From an uncultured Candidatus Saccharibacteria bacterium (lineage in GTDB: Bacteria; Patescibacteriota; Saccharimonadia; Saccharimonadales; CAYZZS01): 64,000 nucleotides of DNA. Below, in pieces: positions 5,864 to 61,460 of the stretch. Location of the stretch: positions 10,081 through 74,080 of the forward strand of contig CAYZZS010000004.1 of assembly GCA_964483035.1 (NCBI GenBank). Direction: 5' to 3'. Under the pieces are notes generated by a model. The model was not told where the DNA came from and ran no database searches. It worked only from the letters and a program-made list of their open reading frames with translations. The first letter of the stretch is position 1. Each line of letters begins with the position of its first letter. The position numbers and the translations under genes were made by a program.

Positions 5864-6289
5864 TTATGAGCTTGAGCCTTCTTCGTAAACAGGCTGACCT
5901 GTTACGCGAAGCGTAAAGTTTACTCGGTCTAGTCCATCAGGTGTTGCTTCACCGAAAGTTCGAGCAGATATGTATGCGTCGAATGTCAGTGTTGCGCCGC
6001 TGGTGTAGCCAATAATCCATGTTCGAGTCTCACCAGAACTAAATACGCTGTCGATTATCTCAGCCTGACCGTCATAGACGTTGTTAGCTTCGATTTCTAC
6101 AGAACCGTTATCTTTCGAGCCTTGCACGAACTCTTTGTTTCCGCCGGGGCTGTCGAGTGTGGTTACATCGACTTCCTCGGCTTCGCTGGAAAGATCGCCG
6201 ATTCTGGCAATATTCTTCAGTAGTAGGTCTGCTTCTGAGCCTTCACCCTGCATCGTCAGGGTTGTACCCATTGATCGTACTCCTGCCAT
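5864..6289 (-). CDS. Major tail protein (phi13-like)
   Basis: 141 aa containing VDVTTLDSPGGNKEFVQGSKDNGSVEIEANN, which resembles phi13-family major tail proteins. It lies upstream of the chaperones. Confidence 0.65.
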   Translation of the reverse strand: MAGVRSMGTTLTMQGEGSEADLLLKNIARIGDLSSEAEEVDVTTLDSPGGNKEFVQGSKDNGSVEIEANNVYDGQAEIIDSVFSSGETRTWIIGYTSGATLTFDAYISARTFGEATPDGLDRVNFTLRVTGQPVYEEGSSS

Positions 6290-6300
6290 GATTTTCTCCT

Positions 6301-6633
6301 TTATTTAATGCCGATAAAGCGGCTGTTTATATGACAAATATTCGCGGGGTCTGGTACGTCCATCGAAAACGACAGACGATAACCTATCCCCCGCATTTTT
6401 GCTTCAACCTGAGACAGCAGAGTGTCTGCTGCGGAGCTGGTTTTTGCCCAGACATCGACGGTTATCTCAATGTCTTGTTTGGCTATCTCGTTATCGAGAT
6501 TCAGCTCTGCCGCGTTATCTGACACATAAAAGGTGATTGCTGGCACTTCTACGATGGTTTTTTGCGACCTCTGTAAGACATTAGATGTAATGCCTTTGAG
6601 TGCGTTATAAACCTCTGATTTCGGTAGGTGCAT
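6301..6633 (-). CDS. Tail completion / terminator-like protein
   Basis: 110 aa, positioned between the gp10-like gene and the major tail gene. Confidence 0.45.
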   Translation of the reverse strand: MHLPKSEVYNALKGITSNVLQRSQKTIVEVPAITFYVSDNAAELNLDNEIAKQDIEITVDVWAKTSSAADTLLSQVEAKMRGIGYRLSFSMDVPDPANICHINSRFIGIK

Positions 6634-6999
6634 CTATAAACCTTTATGTGCTTTTACTATCTCGGTGGTGATGAGTTTTTTGGCTTTGTCTTTGTTTTTT
6701 TGCAGAGCAGGCTTCAGGTATGGCTGTGCCTGCATTTTGCTTGTACCTAGTTCGACATACAGGGCATATTCCTTGTTAGTGCCTACTGTCGCTTCTGCGC
6801 CGCTTGGTATGGCCTTGCTGTTGGTGTTTATTGAGTCTCTTAACTCGCCAGTATCAACAGGTACGATATTTTTTGCCGTACCTTCGACAAGCAATCCAGC
6901 CAGATTGACACCTGTTAGGATTGCCTCCCTTGTTAAGGGGTCGAGCTTGTTGAGCTTTGCCTGCAACCGTCCAAGGTTCTTTATTTTTACTGTTGCCAT
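6634..6999 (-). CDS. HK97 gp10-family head-tail joining protein
   Basis: Contains VPVDTGELRDSI...KEYALYVELGTSKMQAQPYLKPAL, which matches my recollection of the gp10-family signature. Confidence 0.7.
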   Translation of the reverse strand: MATVKIKNLGRLQAKLNKLDPLTREAILTGVNLAGLLVEGTAKNIVPVDTGELRDSINTNSKAIPSGAEATVGTNKEYALYVELGTSKMQAQPYLKPALQKNKDKAKKLITTEIVKAHKGL

Positions 7000-13367: not shown

Positions 13368-14692
13368 TATTCATCATCCTCGTCAGATTCGTTAGTACCG
13401 AAGTTGCCCATCTTCATGCGTTCATCACGCTCTTTTTTAGCCTTTTCGACCACCTCAGAAGCGTCCTCAACAAATGACAGTTGCGCCACTAGGGTTTCGT
13501 CGTCTACTTTTCCGTCCAGATTGTTGATTATCTGCGAAGTCTCAAAGTCGTTCTTCGGCAGCGCTCTGCGGAATACTAACTTAATAGCGTCTACGTCTAC
13601 TTGGCTAATCTTGGACTTGTACTGAAGCATAGTCAGATACAGCTCTAGGCGATTGCGGAGTCCAGTTGCCAGTAAGCGTTCCTTTTTCTTGACGTTCTGC
13701 TCAAAGGCTAGGAGTTTATACAGAATCGACACGCCAGATGGTGCATTGCCAAAGGTTTCATCTGTAAGATCAGGCGTCTTGGAGAACTTGTGTATATCGG
13801 CGGCTATGGTCTTGCGCAGGACGTCAGCATCAGCTTCATCGATGTTCTTGATGAGGTACTCGGCCTTAGAGCCTTCCGGCAAGCCAATAGTGCGATTTTT
13901 CTTTATACCTTCCTGATCTTCTTTCGTCAGCCTAGCGCCGTAAAACGCTAGTATTGCGTCTACCAGCTTCTCTCGGTCTAGTACTCGGTCAGATTGCAGA
14001 ATGTTGTATGCGTCTATCAAAGAAGTGACAGGCTCGTAGTCACCTTTCAGGCGGCGATTATTGAAATAGTGGATCACAGGCACTTCACCAAAGAAATGCT
14101 CTCTGTCGGGAGTATCGGGGACTTCCGTAAGGTCTGAGCCAGCTAGCCTACGGTGATGCACATGCGTTGGCGTCCAGATGGTTATGTCGTAATCGTCTTT
14201 GCTGTTGTTTATCTGGGCGTAGTACAGCGCTGCCATCTTTTCGTGCTTGAATGTGTCATCGTAAATAACGATGGTGTTGTAGACGCTTAGTTTAGAGCTG
14301 AGGATCTCGGAATCTTCATCAACGTAGACGGTCTCAAAAGCCTGTCCAAACATTGACAGATCTTCGGCTATGTCAGTATCTAGCTCCTCAATGCTCTGGG
14401 CTTTATAGGCGTCTATAAGAGGAGTGATGTCATCCTTGCCACCGGCTTTATAATCAACAGGGTTACCCACTAAATACCCAGTGTTGATAGAGGTGATGTA
14501 GTCAGCGAAGTTATGGATTGCCAGCAGCGGATTAGGGGATTGCCTGTCCATTTCTGGCTTGTCATCCATATACGATTCAAGACGCTTGAATATCTTGATG
14601 TTGTTCTTGTTGGCTTTTATCGCATCGGCGATGACTTCACCGTTTAGAATGTCGGTGTCTTTCGGTAGGGTGTATATGGTGCGCTTTTTCAT
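13367..14692 (-). CDS. Portal protein (SPP1 gp6-like)
   Basis: 441 aa, directly downstream of the large terminase, with an acidic C-terminus. Confidence 0.8.
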   Translation of the reverse strand: MKKRTIYTLPKDTDILNGEVIADAIKANKNNIKIFKRLESYMDDKPEMDRQSPNPLLAIHNFADYITSINTGYLVGNPVDYKAGGKDDITPLIDAYKAQSIEELDTDIAEDLSMFGQAFETVYVDEDSEILSSKLSVYNTIVIYDDTFKHEKMAALYYAQINNSKDDYDITIWTPTHVHHRRLAGSDLTEVPDTPDREHFFGEVPVIHYFNNRRLKGDYEPVTSLIDAYNILQSDRVLDREKLVDAILAFYGARLTKEDQEGIKKNRTIGLPEGSKAEYLIKNIDEADADVLRKTIAADIHKFSKTPDLTDETFGNAPSGVSILYKLLAFEQNVKKKERLLATGLRNRLELYLTMLQYKSKISQVDVDAIKLVFRRALPKNDFETSQIINNLDGKVDDETLVAQLSFVEDASEVVEKAKKERDERMKMGNFGTNESDEDDE

Positions 14693-18402: not shown

Positions 18403-18690
18403 CGGCTATGCTTGCGAGGTACGAGATGCTTTTAGTAGCCTAATAAAACGCGCTTGCCCCAGCACGGAAGCAGGCCAGCTATTCGCCCTCCCTTTAAGCA
18501 CTAACTAGGAGGCGCAGCGAGTACTCTGCGCCATATAACTGTCTTTGGAGGGTAACCCAAAGTTAGGGATTGCTCCCTAGTTAACGCTCAATTTGTTAGT
18601 TTTCCAGTGATCTGCCCTAAAAATAGCAGATGTAATCAGTTAAACCTAGTGCTAATGGTTACTTTATTGTAAAATATTTGACAAATTATA
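18403..18690 (-). promoter_or_regulatory. Candidate late promoter, ~236-nt structured leader and terminator-like hairpin ahead of the late operon
   Basis: The minus-strand TATAAT is at 18685-18690. Verified local hairpins lie at 18511-18532, 18543-18562 and 18564-18579. The hairpin 18449-18466 is followed on the minus strand by TTTTATT. Confidence 0.45.
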
Positions 18691-18706
18691 CTACTTATGC
18701 TACTAT
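18678..18706 (+). promoter_or_regulatory. Near-consensus sigma70-type promoter (TTGACA-17 nt-TACTAT)
   Basis: TTGACA is at 18678-18683 and TACTAT at 18701-18706. The promoter sits back-to-back with, and overlaps, the minus-strand TATAAT. Confidence 0.6.
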
Positions 18707-18711
18707 GCATA

Positions 18712-18907
18712 CAGTAAGGTTAAGGTATAAAGGATAGATACTACCTTACAAAACAGCCCGGAAAGTATGGGGAACATCAGTCTCCGCAAGACTGTCATTC
18801 GGCGGAATGTTAAACGGTTCCTTTCATCATCCACCAAGGGCTGTTTTTCTTTTATAAAGAAAGAGGCCCAGGGGATAGACCGGCAGAGCCGGAACCTGGG
18901 CTTTTTT
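18712..18907 (+). ncRNA. Candidate phage small RNA 1 (about 139 nt to the first U run, about 196 nt to the second terminator)
   Basis: Starts at CAGTAAGG, 5 nt after the -10 box. Helices: GTAAGGT/ACCTTAC, CAGCCC(18754)/GGGCTG(18838), CAGTC/GACTG. T runs lie at 18844-18848 and 18902-18907. Confidence 0.5.
18856..18907. terminator. Bidirectional intrinsic terminator
   Basis: The GCCCAGG...CCTGGGC stem is flanked by an A run upstream and TTTTTT downstream. Confidence 0.6.
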
Positions 18908-19007
18908 ATTATACGACATGAAATGCGAAATATCTTCTATCTGTTCCCGTAATTCCTTAGTCATAGCTGCTCAAAACCTCCCACTGTAATAACCCATTTG
19001 TCTAACT

Positions 19008-19038
19008 ATCAAAAATAGAAAAGAGCCCGAAGGCTCTC
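19008..19038 (-). terminator. Intrinsic terminator closing the upstream (early/middle) minus-strand operon
   Basis: The minus strand reads AGAGCCTTCGGGCTCTTTTCTATTTTT. Confidence 0.6.
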
Positions 19039-19259
19039 TTACGCTCGTCTGGAATAACACTATTCTAGCACGAGGCAAGCTTAAGGTACACAGAAATCCT
19101 GATAATAGAAATGGGAGCTGTATGCTCAGCTCCCAGCGTTCTTGGAAAGTGCCATTATTATAGCATTTTCTAGTTCGTCACGCACCACATTCCCGTAGGT
19201 GCTAATTAAAGGTACCCTATCACTGGGCGCCAGGGTTTTGTTTGCTCTGAATTATACTC

Positions 19260-20527: not shown

Positions 20528-20942
20528 TTATTTAGCTCTAAAAATTACTACTGCACTTGGAAAAGGTGCTGAATTGCTAGATCCACCAAACTTGAGGCGA
20601 CCTTTGATAAAACGAACCTCAGCACCCCCCCCCGATAACGTAATCGTGCCACCAGCGAGTGTCAGTTCTTGCAGGTAACAAACAGACGACTAACGTGTTG
20701 CTCTCATACGCCTTTTTAACCCACTTACCAATCTCTCTACCGTAAGGAGGATTCATAAATACTCGTTCACCAGACCAGTCCTGTTCTAAGCCGTCATCAT
20801 CTTTAGTGAAGTAAATCGGACATTTGGCGTTTTCTGGCGTAGCACACGGATCTAGCGTGAAATCAAACTCCTCGTCGAGCTTGTCGAAGAAGTCTTGCGG
20901 CGTAGACCAAAGATCGGTCTTACTACTGAAATGTACCTGCAT
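20528..20942 (-). pseudogene. dam: Phage Dam-family DNA N6-adenine methyltransferase, frame-broken at a G9 tract (candidate phase-variable gene)
   Basis: The N-terminal ORF carries FMNPPYGR and ends ...WWHDYVIGGGC*. Removing one G continues the frame as GGGAEVRFIKGRLKFGGSSNSAPFPSAVVIFRAK*, ending at the TAA 20530-20528. Confidence 0.75.
20625..20633 (-). repeat. Homopolymer G9 (plus-strand C9) inside the methyltransferase gene
   Basis: Counted directly from the sequence: agca-ccccccccc-gataacg. Confidence 0.95.
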
Positions 20943-21176
20943 AATCTCTATCCCTCCTTAATGTAATGTTGTTTAGAAGCGCAGTCTGCCCCACACGGTA
21001 AAGACATCGTCATGCCTCAAGCTCGCTAAGTACCGCTATGGGGTAGGCTACGCTCCATTAAGGTTCTAGGCGAGGGGTTAGCTTGCATCGCACCAGGTCC
21101 TGTTGTTTCAAGGCACACAAGCCAACCATATCCCCGCCTGCTTCTGGACTTACACCCCGCTAGGGGATGCCGGGGA
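20943..21176 (-). ncRNA. Structured GC-rich leader / ncRNA candidate upstream of the methyltransferase
   Basis: Long-range helices verified by hand: 21118-21127 with 21076-21085 (10 bp), and 21040-21053 with 20979-20992 (12 of 14 positions). There is also a nested CCCCG/CGGGG pair. The region ends at the SD sequence AAGGAGGG. Confidence 0.45.
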
Positions 21177-21392
21177 TTAAATCTCTCTATCAAATTCATA
21201 TAAGTGGATGTCGTCATCCAGCCGTCTAACGTAGCGAAATTCTAGCCCATAATTCTTAACTTCGGTTACATCAATAGGTTCCGGCATCAGGCTAACGCTC
21301 TCTGACGGCTTCATGATTCTGACGCTTGGCAGAAGATTTGGGAGTTCAATCATAGAGGTAAACTGTCCATATTTAAGAATCGCTTTCATCAT
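21177..21392 (-). CDS. Small hypothetical protein
   Basis: 71-aa ORF. Confidence 0.5.
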   Translation of the reverse strand: MMKAILKYGQFTSMIELPNLLPSVRIMKPSESVSLMPEPIDVTEVKNYGLEFRYVRRLDDDIHLYEFDREI

Positions 21393-21547
21393 TGGTTCTC
21401 GTATGCGTCTGTAACTACCTTGTCAAACTGCTCCCAGCTCGAAAATCTCACAGGAGGCCCGGTTACTGCCTTTAACACTTCAATCCATGACTCAAGACTT
21501 TCTACTCTTTTCTGGAGGCCATTCAATTGTTCCTGTGTATCTGTCAT
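21389..21547 (-). CDS. Small coiled-coil hypothetical protein (52 aa, below the track cut-off)
   Basis: My own translation gives MTDTQEQLNGLQKRVESLESWIEVLKAVTGPPVRFSSWEQFDKVVTDAYENQ. The SD is AAGGAGAA, and the stop overlaps the next start as ATGA. Confidence 0.5.
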   Translation of the reverse strand: MTDTQEQLNGLQKRVESLESWIEVLKAVTGPPVRFSSWEQFDKVVTDAYENQ

Positions 21548-21582: not shown

Positions 21583-22275
21583 TTAAGTTTCTTTATCCAG
21601 CACAAATTCTTCGGCTTCAAAACCGAAAGTCCACGCCCTTGCCTGCCTAGCCGTTTTCATTTTTGGCGGCACTCTCAAAAAATACTCACGGGTAGTTGAG
21701 GGGTCTTTGACGTGAAGCAGCGTCAAATCTTCATCATCTTGGAGCTTGATGACCATGAGCGTACCGTCTACCTCCGACTCATCTTTAACCTCGGCGTGTT
21801 CCGTCAGCTTCTCGTAACCGACAAGTTCGATAACTGCCCGGCGTATTTCAGCATTAGGTAGCCCGATTATCTCTTGCGGCGATACTTCCTTACTATTTAG
21901 CACCTTATACAGCGTGTCGGTTGTCTTTATCAGGTCTTCTACGGCTTCACCCTTTTCACCGTCATAGCCCTCCTCAAATTCTATTGAGCCTTTTAGCTCA
22001 TAGGTTACATCTGCTGTGGGCTCTTCGGGGCCATAACATGAACAACCAGCCTGTGAGCAAGTGATTAGTTCTTTATCTTTGTTCACGCCTATGTCAAACT
22101 GCACCCAATCGTAACCGCCACCTCCGCCCGTGCCAATCCAGAATTCATCACCCACCGCGCCGGTATTCAGATTCTTGAACTTGCCAGCGATATTCTTTAG
22201 CTTCCTAATGGTTGGTTCTGGTATTACCACCGTCTTAGTCCCTGACATATACAATCTTCTCTGGTGTGTACTCAC
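21583..22275 (-). CDS. Hypothetical phage protein
   Basis: 230 aa. It has a Gly run (GTGGGGGYDW) and a Cys cluster (CSQAGCSCYG). Confidence 0.55.
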   Translation of the reverse strand: MSTHQRRLYMSGTKTVVIPEPTIRKLKNIAGKFKNLNTGAVGDEFWIGTGGGGGYDWVQFDIGVNKDKELITCSQAGCSCYGPEEPTADVTYELKGSIEFEEGYDGEKGEAVEDLIKTTDTLYKVLNSKEVSPQEIIGLPNAEIRRAVIELVGYEKLTEHAEVKDESEVDGTLMVIKLQDDEDLTLLHVKDPSTTREYFLRVPPKMKTARQARAWTFGFEAEEFVLDKET

Positions 22276-24067: not shown

Positions 24068-24418
24068 CTAATCGTTTAGGTTCTGTTTAACGTAACCGAT
24101 AAACTGTTCCATCCGCTGAGCGTAGTACTGCTCAAACGTCAGGTCATTGCGTCCGGACTGCTGATATTCGATATACAGCACGCTCCGGAGCCGTTGTGAT
24201 GGTGTCTTTCCCCCGGTGTCTCTCCTTATTTCTTTTAATTCCAGATCGTCGCCGTGTTCCTGTTCGGAGAACAGCAGCCAGCCGAATTTCTGAAAGTAGT
24301 TCATAACGATGAGCTTCTCCTCATCTGTTGCTTCGTTCGTATGGAAGCGAAGCGAAAGCCCGCCGTCTTTAAGGGCGGTAATACCCTCTAGGACGGCGGG
24401 GATTTGAAATTGTTTCAC
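24068..24418 (-). CDS. Hypothetical phage protein
   Basis: 116-aa ORF. Confidence 0.5.
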   Translation of the reverse strand: MKQFQIPAVLEGITALKDGGLSLRFHTNEATDEEKLIVMNYFQKFGWLLFSEQEHGDDLELKEIRRDTGGKTPSQRLRSVLYIEYQQSGRNDLTFEQYYAQRMEQFIGYVKQNLND

Positions 24419-24433
24419 CTTAACCCCGCATGC

Positions 24434-24904
24434 TTAATCTTCAAAGTATTTGAGCATCATCTTGTATTCGGGATGATCCTTGTTCGCCTCCTTTGGCAAG
24501 TGTTCGCTTTCGTCTGCATACTGAGCTGAATATTCAGTACTCAAGCCCTCTCCATGACGGGTGATGATAATATCCGCCGTCATATATTCTTTCTCAGGCT
24601 TTTGCTGCAGCAGTTTCACGATCTGATCGCCCAACGCCGGACCTTTTTCAAGCACATGAAAGTGTCCGGTATCAAAGCTATAGACTACGAATCCATAGGT
24701 AAGCTTCGGTTCGGCATCCTGCAGAAACTTTGGCATGTCCCCATCGCCGACAATGGCCCGGACAAAACCCTTGGCCGTCTTTTTGCCGACGACATGATAC
24801 ATACAGCCGTCAGTCAGCACTCGGACACGGTTTTCACCCGTCTTCAGGCTGAGGAACCGGGACGGCTTAACGTAGTTGTCTAAGTTGATCTTCTGGAATT
24901 TCAT
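24434..24904 (-). CDS. Possible ssDNA-binding protein
   Basis: 156 aa with an acidic C-terminal tail (...KYFED), adjacent to the nuclease gene. The assignment is weak. Confidence 0.3.
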   Translation of the reverse strand: MKFQKINLDNYVKPSRFLSLKTGENRVRVLTDGCMYHVVGKKTAKGFVRAIVGDGDMPKFLQDAEPKLTYGFVVYSFDTGHFHVLEKGPALGDQIVKLLQQKPEKEYMTADIIITRHGEGLSTEYSAQYADESEHLPKEANKDHPEYKMMLKYFED

Positions 24905-26270: not shown

Positions 26271-26459
26271 GTTATCGCCTCCAAAAACTTTTGCCCCAAA
26301 GTTGCTTTTGCATTGAATTACCCTCCTTATGGCCTTACTGACCAGCGGGCGGGCAAGTTATCGCGGCTTTAAGATCACTTATAAAGCTTCTTGCCCACCA
26401 GTCGGTCAGTAAAACCGACTTAGTAAGGTCATGTCCTCTCGCAAAAGAGGCACGACCTG

Positions 26460-27008
26460 TTAGTACCAATGACCCATATCCCGTCCGTTGATTGGCACTC
26501 TCGCTTTCCAGTGGGCTAAGGCTTTGGCTGGCGTGCTGTAGCGTTCGGCTATATAGTCGATTCCCCACTCTATTTGACTCTCCACACTTGATGGATCGGG
26601 GATTTTGCTGCACGGCCACGCTTGGGGGATGCCGCAGGCGGCGCTGTGAGGGTTCTTGGCGTTCGGATTCCATCCGCTTTCTCTATGCCACAGCTCCTCT
26701 AGTGCCTCCCACTGCGTCCCATGCCAGCCCTTTGCCTCGGCTTTCTGTTTAGCGAGGGATTTTGGGTCGGTTGGTACTGGTTCCGGCTTCGGCTCGGTCT
26801 CAGTTTTCACGGCTTCCACTTCGACAATGTTTGGTACTTGAAGTGGAGCTTGTGTTTCCTGTGTCACTTGTTCCGCCAGAGTTATTTCCTCTGCCGTAGG
26901 TTGAACCGAATTGTTAATGTTCGCCGGAGTTTGCCGGATGAGGAGTACGAATATTCCGCATACGGCCAGTAGCTTTATGACCACTGATACCCCCTCTGAG
27001 GACTCCAC
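26460..27008 (-). CDS. Membrane-anchored lytic transglycosylase-like protein
   Basis: GTG start, an N-terminal TM segment, then ESGWNPNAKNPHSAACGIPQA (an SLT-type E-S-G...Q block). Confidence 0.55.
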   Translation of the reverse strand: MESSEGVSVVIKLLAVCGIFVLLIRQTPANINNSVQPTAEEITLAEQVTQETQAPLQVPNIVEVEAVKTETEPKPEPVPTDPKSLAKQKAEAKGWHGTQWEALEELWHRESGWNPNAKNPHSAACGIPQAWPCSKIPDPSSVESQIEWGIDYIAERYSTPAKALAHWKARVPINGRDMGHWY

Positions 27009-27239: not shown

Positions 27240-27588
27240 ACTCGTAAGTCACAGTATGTGTTCTTACGCACCTTATACCCCCAATTCTAACAGTTTCGGT
27301 CCTTTGGATCGGAGCATATGTTAGGTGTTTTAGAGCGTGCCAATATAAGTTGTTACCCTCCACTTATTGTGGCGCATCCGCTCGTGTAGCGTGATAGCGC
27401 TCTAAAACAAATTATTCCCTTTAACCCCGCGTTCCCCCCTCGTTGTAGTTGAGGCTTGGCGGTAACGACGGACATACCTGAGTGGGCCTAAAGCTGACTT
27501 TGCGAGACAGCTTTAGGAGGCCTTCAAGGTGGGTTGAAGGGTGTAAAGAGCCTCCAGCGGTGCCCACCCCCTCTGGAGGCTCTTTTTA
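27240..27588 (+). ncRNA. Candidate ~350-nt structured ncRNA 2 at the phage/host junction
   Basis: No credible ORF. Verified helices: 27243-27248/27263-27268, 27327-27337/27398-27408 (11 bp perfect), 27487-27496/27508-27517 (10 bp perfect), 27521-27527/27534-27540. A terminator closes the unit. Confidence 0.55.
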
Positions 27589-27590
27589 TT
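27547..27590 (+). terminator. Intrinsic terminator of ncRNA 2
   Basis: AGAGCCTCCAG...CTGGAGGCTCT forms an 11-bp stem followed by TTTTT. Confidence 0.75.
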
Positions 27591-27847
27591 AGAATTACAC
27601 TTATTAGATTCATCTGTTAGGTGCTCTATTCCGAGTGGTATGTCGCTTCGGCATCAGCATTCACTGCATACTTGGTGAGATAATAATTCGGGCTTTTTGT
27701 GGAAATCTTCTTTGTAATGACGAATGAGTCCTCATTATCCTCACATGGATAACCCCCCTTGCCCCAAGGCTGGCGCAGGTGTAGGGAGTTATCTGGCTCA
27801 GACGACTATTACGGGCAGCAAATATTGTAAAATATTTAGAAATATGG

Positions 27848-37263: not shown

Positions 37264-37338
37264 GGCCTCATCGTCTAGCGGTTAGGACACCGGGTTCTCA
37301 TCCCGGCAACCGGGGTTCGATTCCCCGTGAGGTCACCA
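37264..37338 (+). tRNA. tRNA-Glu (anticodon CUC), CCA encoded
   Basis: Cloverleaf built by hand: acceptor GGCCTCA/TGAGGTC, anticodon stem CCGGG/CCCGG with loop TTCTCAT, and T arm CGGGG-TTCGATT-CCCCG. Confidence 0.85.
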
Positions 37339-38833
37339 AAAGAGACTCATTTGACATAGATGGGTCTTTTTTCATGCTTGCTAAGGTGTAAAGTGTGCTT
37401 AATTTGGGCGTTCGAAATTTATTTGTAGTCAGGTCGTATTCAAGCCCTTCTGGAAAGACTAGACGTTGGTAGATTATTTGATGTTCTATCGAGGCGTTAC
37501 TCCAAATTCGTGGTGCGTTCGACATAAAACGCATCGCATAATCTATTGCATCAGTTTTTAGTTCAGATAAAGAGCCGATACTGGTAAGGTCTTCCTGTAC
37601 AGCATCAGACTCAATCTTTATCTTAGCTACAAGGTCCTTCTTCTCATCTACTGTTATCTGTCCTGCAACAAGCATTTCTACAACCTTATTTCTTCGCTCT
37701 GTAAGCTGTTCTAAGACCTTGTGGAGCTTCTTTTGTTTACTGCTTAGGGTTTGCGTCTCTTCACGCCAGACACGTACTATTATCTCTTTTAAGAACTTCT
37801 CCATATCTGGGTCAGGAGTTAGTGATGACAGCAGTTGCAAGAATTGTTCATGTAGCTCTATTGTCTGTACAGATGGGACATGACACCTAGAACAGTGGTA
37901 ACGCGGAGAACGCTTACCCGATCCACCGACTGGACTACTGCCAGTCATATACTTATTACAATTTGCACACACGAGGAAACGTCTCAGAGGAAATTCAGGA
38001 TTATTCTTCTTGTATGTAGCAGCAGTGTTTTTGTTGCTTCTCAGTAGCTCTTGATTACGGTGAAATGTTGCAGGAGTAATAATCCCTTTGAATTTTGAAG
38101 GTATGAGCTGACCCTCTGTGTGACTACTTTGTTCAAGTCCTGCATAGATAGGATTACGCAACATCTTGCTTAGTGCCTGTATCTGCATCGGCTTGCCTGT
38201 AGCAGATTTCAACCCGATACTTTCACACAGCTTAATAAGACTAGCGATTGTGTAGGTACCTGTTGCGTATACTTCTAATACAGTAACCACCTTATCTGCT
38301 ACCCCCTCTACAGGTGCAAGCGTGGATTTCTCAAGTACATCTCTCACATTTCTCAGGCCGTGAGGTGCTTTACTCATACGCCAGCCCTCTTTTGCGTGGG
38401 CTTTCATGTTGTCTTTCACACGGACAGACTTAACCTTGTTGTCATGTTGAGCTAGTACAGCTTCTAAGTTCTGGATAAGCTCCTCATTAACGCTATCCTC
38501 AACACCTGAGTTGATATTCTTGTACTGAACACCTAATTTAGATAACAAGGTGCGTAGTGCGAAAAAGTCTGAAGCATTACGTGTTAGACGGTCTGTCTGG
38601 TATGTGATGAGATAGTGTATGTTACCCTTGTTCGCTTCAAGATACGCTAACATCTCTTTCATGGCAGGACGGTCGAGGGTTTTGGCCGATACACCGTCAT
38701 CGTGGTAGATTTCTTTAACCAGTACATCATTACGTGATGCCCAATCCTGACATAGCTTTTGCTGGATATCGAGACTAGCACCCTCTACTTGTTGAGTAGT
38801 TGATACCCGAAGATAAATAACTGCTTTTTTCAT
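37298..38833 (-). CDS. Large serine recombinase (integrase)
   Basis: The resolvase-type N-terminus is KKAVIYLRVSTTQQ. A recombinase domain, a zinc ribbon (CANCNKYMTG...RYHCSRC) and a coiled coil follow. Confidence 0.9.
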   Translation of the reverse strand: MKKAVIYLRVSTTQQVEGASLDIQQKLCQDWASRNDVLVKEIYHDDGVSAKTLDRPAMKEMLAYLEANKGNIHYLITYQTDRLTRNASDFFALRTLLSKLGVQYKNINSGVEDSVNEELIQNLEAVLAQHDNKVKSVRVKDNMKAHAKEGWRMSKAPHGLRNVRDVLEKSTLAPVEGVADKVVTVLEVYATGTYTIASLIKLCESIGLKSATGKPMQIQALSKMLRNPIYAGLEQSSHTEGQLIPSKFKGIITPATFHRNQELLRSNKNTAATYKKNNPEFPLRRFLVCANCNKYMTGSSPVGGSGKRSPRYHCSRCHVPSVQTIELHEQFLQLLSSLTPDPDMEKFLKEIIVRVWREETQTLSSKQKKLHKVLEQLTERRNKVVEMLVAGQITVDEKKDLVAKIKIESDAVQEDLTSIGSLSELKTDAIDYAMRFMSNAPRIWSNASIEHQIIYQRLVFPEGLEYDLTTNKFRTPKLSTLYTLASMKKDPSMSNESLLVTSRGIEPRLPG

Positions 38834-61372: not shown

Positions 61373-61460
61373 GCCGCAGTGGTGGAACTGGTAGACACGC
61401 TGGACTCAAAATCCTGTGGGCATTGCGCTCGTGACGGTTCGAGTCCGTCCTGCGGCACCA
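61373..61460 (+). tRNA. tRNA-Leu (anticodon CAA), long variable arm, CCA encoded
   Basis: Acceptor GCCGCAG/CTGCGGC, anticodon loop CTCAAAA, T arm GACGG-TTCGAGT-CCGTC. There is one T-T mismatch in the anticodon stem. Confidence 0.8.

Follow-up and report, generated by a model that had tools for sequence, protein, structure and literature searches.

In this study we analysed a 64,000-nucleotide (nt) stretch of DNA (the window) from an uncultured Candidatus Saccharibacteria bacterium (GenBank assembly GCA_964483035.1, contig CAYZZS010000004.1, positions 10,081 to 74,080), the minus strand of which carries a siphovirus-like prophage. In the early gene block of the prophage, minus-strand genes for a DUF6745 protein (21583-22248), a 52-residue protein, and a 71-residue protein (21177..21392) are followed by a 234-nt gap and then by a gene for a Dam-family methyltransferase (20528..20942, minus; ATG at 20940-20942). 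This gap (20943..21176, minus), which extends from the stop codon of the 71-residue gene to the Dam ATG and lies ~400 nt downstream of the DUF6745 gene, is the element studied here; we number it so that position 1 is window position 21176. Phage genomes are rich in unannotated intergenic stretches, and few structured phage RNAs have a known role. We find that the element contains a structured RNA core, that its fold is specific to the gene strand, that it is conserved in a second phage represented by IMG/VR contig 3300020050_007684 (hereafter L106), and that it is independent of the Dam gene. Judged from the two sequences, it is a candidate for a new structured RNA family with two known members and no counterpart in Rfam.

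Fold of the gene-strand RNA

The gene-strand RNA of the element had a predicted minimum free energy (MFE) of −93.8 kcal/mol (z −4.28); dinucleotide shuffling, repeated 200 times, never gave an equally stable fold. The opposite (plus) strand gave −72.4 kcal/mol with a z of only −0.30, and the fold therefore depends on G-U pairs of the sense RNA; by our own count, about a dozen G-U pairs are present in the sense RNA only. When the prophage was scanned in 331 overlapping 234-nt segments on both strands, no segment had a lower minus-strand MFE or a larger strand asymmetry than the element, and its z was the second-lowest. The initial annotation, made from the letters of the window without database searches, had described the element as richer in GC than its surroundings, and this is so (0.52-0.53 vs 0.43-0.475 in the flanks). 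Consensus scans, on which all promoter and terminator calls in this work are based, predicted no promoter-like or terminator-like site inside the element. Its sequence was identical in three Logan contigs (L001-L003).

The MFE structure consists of a short hairpin 1, a 70-nt hairpin 2, and a hairpin 3 of 84-108 nt, and hairpins 2 and 3 were retained upon addition of 50-200 nt of flanking sequence. Hairpin 1 (21152..21170, minus), defined by the fold and by comparison with L106, has the form GCAU-CCC-CUAGC-GGG-GUGU and is followed by the single-stranded junction motif UGUAAGUCCAGAAGCA (21139..21154, minus), which reads UGUAAGCCCAAGAACA in L106. Hairpin 2 (positions 39-108; 21069..21138, minus), defined by the fold and by alignment with L106, comprises a 7-bp outer helix (GGCGGGG/CCUCGCC), a 4-nt bulge, an 11-bp helix that is invariant between the two copies (GGUUGGCUUGU/GCAAGCUAACC), and an inner helix that leads to a loop with UGAAA. 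Between hairpins 2 and 3 lies the junction UAGAACCUUAA (21058..21068, minus), the UAGA of which is conserved. In hairpin 3 (positions 120-203; 20974..21057, minus), again defined by fold and comparison, L106 shares the base helix UGGAGCGUAG/CUGCGCU(U)CUA and the inner helix CGGUA/UACCG; the intervening helix and the tip are different in the two copies. The 3′ tail (20943..20973, minus) contains CUAAACAACAUUACAUU, the Dam Shine-Dalgarno (SD) sequence AAGGAGGG (20952-20959), and the spacer to the ATG, and its CUAAA is the sole part held in common with L106. On the basis of shared blocks and architecture, the conserved RNA core spans positions 7-205 (20972..21170, minus).

All of the pairings proposed in the initial annotation are present in the sequence. 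The 10-bp helix of GGUUGGCUUG (50-59) with CAAGCUAACC (92-101) forms in the sequence, as does the helix of GCGUAGCCUACCCC (124-137) with GGGGCAGACUGCGC (185-198), in which 12 of 14 positions pair and one pair is G-U. The proposed CCCCG (2-6)/CGGGG (41-45) helix around CCCC-UAGC-GGGG (11-22) is there as well, but the MFE structure pairs CGGGG with CCUCG instead, which extends hairpin 2 and makes CCCCG/CGGGG an alternative. The last helix ends 19 nt before the SD sequence (positions 218-225), and not ~30 nt before it as had been estimated.

Additional minus-strand segments with low z values (−4.5 to −6.0) were found at ~26326-26560, 6202-6670, 24337-24570, and 27379-27612. Unlike the element, these segments also have low z values on the plus strand, and some overlap small open reading frames (ORFs).

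A homologous RNA in a second phage

A scan for both strands of the 10-bp helix identified L106 as the sole true homologue. This 14.9-kb phage contig has a GC content of 39% and carries portal, tail-spike, RecT, SSB, and RusA genes. Its RNA is encoded on the gene strand from directly after the RusA stop codon and is cut off by the end of the contig at ...UGCGCUCUAAAUU. The prophage proteins had no match in L106 by tblastn, and the element is the only similarity between the two. Each element exceeds its own phage in GC by ~7-8 points, with the L106 element at ~47% by our own count, and neither a promoter nor a terminator was predicted on the strand of the L106 RNA. Folded on its own, L106 adopted the same layout (−123.2 kcal/mol, z −5.76; antisense z −1.19). 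An insertion of ~90 nt, which forms two hairpins, separates its junction motif from hairpin 2, and the tip of its hairpin 3 is different.

The window and L106 are 78% identical over 76 nt, and further shared blocks lie outside this stretch. The blocks are GCAU...RUGU followed by AAGYCCARGAA (hairpin 1 and junction 1); GGCGRGG (outer helix of hairpin 2), GGUUGGCUUGUGUGC (5′ strand of hairpin 2), UGAAA (loop of hairpin 2), and AUGCAAGCUAACCCCUCG (3′ strand of hairpin 2); UAGA (junction 2/3); and GAGCGUAG (5′ strand of the hairpin-3 base), CGGUA...UACCG (inner helix of hairpin 3), and UGCGCU(U)CUAAA (3′ strand of the hairpin-3 base plus tail). They include the single-stranded motif UGUAAGYCCARGAA, which is invariant in both copies.

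The pairing is conserved together with the sequence. First, the closing pairs of hairpin 1 are kept in L106 (GCAU-CCCU-AUGU), three of the four being identical and one differing on one side (U-G to U-A). Second, hairpin 2 is 83% identical in a MAFFT alignment (A3), and all 20 pairs scored on it (those of the outer and 11-bp helices plus two inner pairs) form in both copies, with two one-sided changes and one compensatory change. Third, hairpin 3 has eight identical pairs and two one-sided changes in its base helix, three compensatory changes and one one-sided change in its middle helix, and five identical pairs in its inner helix. When all helices were aligned by hand, 45 of 45 pairs formed in both copies (35 identical, six with one-sided changes among G-C, G-U, and A-U, and four compensatory), and three of the four compensatory changes sit in hairpin 3 between two invariant helices.

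Because invariant blocks interleave with segments that have drifted but still pair, because the fold is strand-specific in both copies, and because the two phages share nothing else, we infer that selection acts on the folded RNA; the pattern appears unlike the neutral decay of transferred DNA. Of the possibilities named in the initial annotation (a riboswitch-like leader, a ribozyme, or a stand-alone noncoding RNA), the last is favored by the preservation, in a second and unrelated phage, of a sense-strand-specific fold with pair-preserving changes.

In L106, the 5′ part of the RNA (14578-14640) is closed by GGUUGGUUGUG/CAUAACCAACU, a helix similar to the GGUUGGCUUGU/GCAAGCUAACC helix of hairpin 2; this resemblance suggests that the closing helix is an internal duplication of the hairpin-2 helix. 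The alternative CCCCG/CGGGG helix of the window copy occupies the equivalent enclosing position.

Known RNA families, coding potential, and further copies

A cmscan of the whole window against Rfam 15 at gathering scores returned two tRNAs elsewhere and nothing at the element. A permissive scan of 20800-21400 (E≤10) gave two noise matches, a snoRNA and a CRISPR repeat, and a scan of L106 gave one, a miRNA precursor with an E value of 9. ARAGORN likewise reported nothing at the element. Covariance models of riboswitches for S-adenosylmethionine (SAM) and S-adenosylhomocysteine (SAH) matched neither the element nor L106 at E≤10, GOLLD and ROOL, both of which are in Rfam, did not match the element, and no Rfam model of a self-cleaving ribozyme (hammerhead, twister, pistol, hatchet, HDV-like, and others) matched at E≤10, the ribozyme result being one of family models and not a cleavage test.

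The element might be a chance structure, as other prophage segments reach similar z values, or a short protein-coding gene, as the 63-codon ORF at 21026-21217 overlaps the region (a smaller frame is another candidate). We consider this account extremely unlikely, given the shuffling result and the existence of a homologue in an unrelated phage in which every one of the three frames is interrupted by stop codons. A search of 1.84 billion protein representatives gave the ORF just two weak matches, both to tandem-repeat sequences, and tblastx detected nothing in the interior of the element. We therefore rejected a coding role, in line with the initial annotation, which had called the ORF spurious; its description of the ORF as lying inside the element needs correction, as the ORF begins within the upstream gene. 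The similarity to the two metagenomic tandem-repeat 'proteins' (P0227 and P0228), which involves the translation of hairpin 2 (for example, GWLCMETTRPG..ANP vs GWLVCLETTGPG..ANP), was judged to be a chance match inflated by repeats. If true, it would point to tandem arrays of a related 183-nt unit.

Several searches for additional copies were negative. No second copy was found within the window, and on this ground we rejected a repeat or miniature inverted-repeat transposable element within the window. Blastn against GenBank phages, PLSDB plasmids, and E. coli genomes yielded no copy, and neither an exact 23-mer DNA scan nor a hairpin-3 21-mer scan gave a match. The pattern GTAAGTCCAG..GAAACAACAGGA had only chance matches in IMG/VR and GTDB genomes; a second pattern (E+F), which is 1 nt off for L106, had only a chance match within a helicase gene; and the junction pattern (J1) had one chance match in JGI metagenomes. 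A covariance model of the hairpin-2 region (R1), applied to ~570 kb of fetched loci that included GenBank RusA neighborhoods, recovered the two known copies only, with scores of 108.5 and 116.8 bits.

Synteny did not extend the family either. The 71-residue gene led only to the identical Logan contigs and to one 588-bp ENA contig (L004), whose ends are a primer artefact, so that it is uninformative about a downstream RNA: positions 1-17 are the random-amplification primer GTTTCCCAGTCACGATC, and the reverse complement occupies 556-572, 16 nt from the other end. The DUF6745 gene had no close relatives in IMG/VR, and in ten contigs with relatives at 71-78% identity the downstream genes were different and the element was not found.

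The chance match to the junction pattern (L104, 2060-2100) comes from a bacterial intergenic region that is GC-rich (GGGGCGCAAGUCCGGAAGCGGG) and is flanked by a short ORF on the minus strand and by a long open frame of hydrophobic character; it has no further similarity to the element. The 588-bp ENA contig is the only one with a diverged copy of the 71-residue gene (87% amino-acid identity).

Relation to the Dam gene

In the initial annotation, a cofactor-sensing leader on a SAM-dependent enzyme was considered attractive, although the sequence was matched to no SAM or SAH class; the Rfam search likewise assigned no family. The element does resemble SAM/SAH riboswitches in being a structured, GC-rich 5′ leader before the gene of a SAM-dependent enzyme, with conserved junctions and with the SD sequence paired in. 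It differs from them in having no covariance-model match, no recurrent association with Dam, and, in L106, a variable insertion of ~90 nt. Most riboswitch aptamers are also shorter than the element.

To compare Dam-upstream regions, we used a frame-corrected query of 137 residues and examined the 80 closest IMG/VR loci (61-80% identity). The element was not detected in any of these loci by blastn or nhmmer, and in 16 of them the gap before the Dam start measured −22 to 110 nt. A search of 5.8 billion proteins identified closer Dam relatives at 92, 86, 84, and 84% amino-acid identity, and all four start directly after the preceding gene or overlap it, with no leader. In the closest of them (L092, 92%), nucleotide similarity to the window begins at the ATG and the upstream genes differ. 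Because the closest Dam genes are without the element and similarity to L092 starts at the ATG, these sequences indicate that Dam is a cassette with its own boundaries and that the RNA is not part of it. The proposed SAM leader is thus unsupported, and the case cautions that a folded leader before the gene of a SAM-dependent enzyme need not be a SAM riboswitch.

More generally, the element could control translation of the downstream gene (Dam in the window) as a leader or riboswitch in which the SD sequence is sequestered and is opened by a ligand (SAM, SAH, or another) or by terminating ribosomes. The pairings would be CCUUAAUG with CAUUAAGG and AUCCC with GGGAU. In the MFE structure, CCUUAAUG (positions 114-121; 21056-21063), which extends 2 nt into hairpin 3, does pair with the Dam SD region, as do positions 1-4, and this pairing persists with 50-100 nt of additional flank. 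The end of the RNA is separated from the SD sequence by 13 nt, conserved junction nucleotides and horizontal spread are typical of riboswitches, and the downstream gene of L106 lies beyond the contig end. Three observations in addition to the Rfam and Dam-locus results nonetheless make such a leader quite unlikely. First, the predicted accessibility of the Dam SD sequence was 0.0275, which ranks 20th among 37 prophage genes, so that its sequestration is nothing special; on this ground we rejected SD sequestration or translational coupling as a special feature. Second, the segment that pairs with the SD sequence is outside the conserved core. Third, the comparative structure places U120 and G121 in another conserved helix. 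A riboswitch for some other ligand that acts on the downstream gene may be conceivable, because the L106 contig ends inside the RNA.

A direct repeat at the gene boundaries

A short direct repeat flanks the element. Its left copy, GATAGAGAGATT, lies just before the TAA of the 71-residue gene (21180..21191, minus), and its right copy, GATAGAGATT, lies at 20943-20952 (minus). The shared 8-mer GATAGAGA occurs at this spacing in 0.7% of random window pairs (p ~0.007), a significance that is modest given that the repeat was noticed post hoc.

The repeat bears on whether the element is inserted DNA, selfish or passive, with hairpins as a by-product; a small mobile element and the scar of a recombination event are examples. 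The sequence GATAGAGA(GA)TT flanks the element exactly at both gene boundaries, the element is GC-richer than its phage, and it occurs in unrelated phages, all as expected of inserted DNA. Several results oppose this explanation. The ends of the element have no terminal inverted repeats, and there is no second copy in the 64-kb window and none in the phage, plasmid, and E. coli collections searched by blastn. In addition, the strand asymmetry caused by G-U pairs in both copies and the drift that preserves pairing point to selection on RNA. We regard insertion without an RNA function as very unlikely.

The arrangement AUU-UAA-hairpin ... AUU-AUG formally resembles the take-off and landing codons of T4 gene-60 bypassing. 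Translational bypass of 237 nt is very unlikely here, and Dam has a strong SD sequence of its own.

Possible functions of the RNA

Our preferred interpretation is that the element has as its core a real structured RNA of ~200 nt, which is an independent module and a free-standing phage RNA read by conserved machinery; we hold this view tentatively, as having slightly less than an even chance of being correct in full. At least two tailed phages, which are otherwise unrelated and probably infect different hosts, carry the module in their early/recombination ('nin-like') block, and the window copy fills the whole gap between two same-strand genes. Because neither phage has a predicted promoter or terminator for the RNA alone, and because the RNA follows a same-strand gene, we infer that an operon transcript includes it. 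The identity of helix strands and junction nucleotides in otherwise dissimilar phages suggests that a conserved machine recognizes it.

In the mechanism that we propose, the folded RNA would be recognized by this conserved machinery while within the operon transcript. As a cis-acting element of the type of put, EAR, or conAn2, it would modify the transcribing RNA polymerase, and the modified polymerase would read through terminators between the early genes and the packaging genes. The basis for this proposal is position. The early block ends with the element, which is on the gene strand. About 1.8 kb further downstream, before the terminase genes are reached, this strand has a promoter-like site (19181-19154) and, after it, two strong predicted intrinsic terminators at 19135-19112 and 19040-19019 (minus), with more further on. 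Cis-acting antitermination, put-like or conAn2-like, is our leading guess; it is speculative and, taken by itself, rather unlikely. If it holds, such an RNA would control the passage from early to late gene expression.

Several considerations weigh against these interpretations. There are only two independent members, the hand alignment was fitted to the structure, and most pairs are invariant and thus uninformative. In a shuffling control, 244 of 500 shuffles reached the observed pairing value, although with two sequences this control does not discriminate. A hairpin-3 model built from the window alone (R2) found L106 at the expected place, but with a score of just 10.3 bits (E 2.4). The flanking direct repeat could mean that the element is merely inserted DNA, and the downstream terminators could instead serve a separate late promoter that works with a protein factor. 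Finally, the RNA antiterminators known to us lie near the operon start and have no sequence in common with the element.

Comparison with characterized antitermination RNAs shows both likenesses and differences. HK022 put (putL/putR) and Bacillus EAR are, like the element, folded operon-encoded RNAs, and they act in cis upstream of terminators (PMC9378689, PMC8191782). In their stem-loops, as in the element, sequence is conserved as well as pairing. The put RNAs are ~70 nt long, with two stem-loops located just after early promoters, and EAR is ~120 nt; the element, in contrast, has a core of ~200 nt (~300 nt in L106). Its place is late in the early block, and its sequence resembles neither of them. 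The conAn2 RNA of pLS20-type bipartite antitermination, which is intergenic and 260-600 nt long, influences terminators 0.3-1.5 kb downstream in cis (PMC8191782) and is thus a precedent for action over a distance of this order. Like the element, it extends from the stop codon of a small gene to the next ribosome-binding site, contains a GC-rich segment, and forms stem-loops (PMC8191782). Unlike the element, it belongs to conjugation operons of Gram-positive plasmids, and its long-range action requires the upstream ConAn1 protein (PMC8191782). Relatives of conAn2 are 30-40% conserved in sequence, as against the invariant blocks of the element in its phage context.

Other functions would involve action in trans or processing of the transcript. 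A stable noncoding RNA could be cut from the operon transcript and act in trans by binding or titrating a host or phage protein, for example as an anti-defense decoy or an enzyme modulator. The very stable fold, the invariant blocks across unrelated phages, and the spread of the module without a linked protein fit this model, and GOLLD, ROOL, DicF, and ToxI mimics provide precedents for structured RNAs that phages carry as decoys or with no assigned role. The first three resemble the element as structured RNA modules in unrelated phages or prophages whose function was unknown at discovery; DicF, which is processed from an intergenic part of an operon transcript, is unlike it in being 53 nt long and acting by antisense pairing, and GOLLD and ROOL (500-800 nt) are larger than its core. 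The missing promoter and terminator predictions in both phages speak against a trans-acting RNA, as does the finding that no partner protein is common to both phages in the available sequence, and we judge it unlikely.

The RNA could instead be an mRNA processing or stability element that provides RNase III-type cleavage sites or protective hairpins between cistrons, as in T7 early mRNAs. Its two long and irregular duplexes (~22 and ~34 bp) are placed between cistrons of a polycistronic operon, and in this respect it resembles the long imperfect hairpins of the T7 early-gene RNase III sites, which occupy intercistronic gaps of a polycistronic phage transcript. However, each T7 site is one hairpin of ~50-60 nt, and the T7 sites are not known to have long sequence blocks in common between unrelated phages. 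RNase III sites need little sequence identity, and the identical blocks of 15-18 nt and the single-stranded motif exceed that requirement. A role confined to processing or stability therefore seems quite improbable.

If our preferred interpretation is extended, the two copies would be the founding pair of a new phage RNA class that is horizontally exchanged, independent of proteins, located at the end of the early block in phages of different hosts, and able to dock, through the invariant helix and the junction motif, on a universally conserved host machine (most concretely RNA polymerase) to achieve RNA-only antitermination with an RNA much larger than put. This extension is rather unlikely as a whole. 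A cis-acting regulator or a machinery-binding RNA of this kind would add a new RNA-based control device to put, EAR, and conAn2, and annotators would gain a marker for the early/late boundary in uncultured phages.

Genomic setting

The genes for the tape measure, minor head protein, portal, and large terminase of the prophage occupy 2.7-16 kb of the window. The 71-residue protein encoded directly upstream of the element had a single other relative among 5.8 billion proteins searched and has no Pfam domain on record.

The Dam reading frame is broken by a run of nine G residues (20625-20633), giving a product of 107 residues that ends at 20619. With eight G residues, the frame would be open through the conserved C-terminus (AEVRFIKGRLKF...APFPSAVVIF) to a TAA at 20528-20530. 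Full-length relatives have 135-146 residues, and the closest of them (L092) is in frame with eight G residues. The same truncated 107-residue Dam is present in an independently assembled Logan contig (L003). The tract could be phase-variable or prone to slippage, the gene could be a pseudogene, or the ninth G could be a homopolymer sequencing error.

A serine integrase gene (37298-38833) adjoins a tRNA-Glu(CUC) gene (joint region 37264-38833), and this site is probably the prophage end and attachment site. Beyond ~39 kb lie non-phage genes, including gltX and genes for a sortase, UmuC, and a TraD-like protein, which apparently belong to the host. The second tRNA in the window is Leu-CAA (61373-61460). 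Between the small early genes and the genes that precede the terminase is an ORF-poor gap of ~850 nt (18403-19259, minus), which contains the promoter-like site and the predicted terminators described above and the layout of which is similar to that of the lambda PR′-tR′ late control region.

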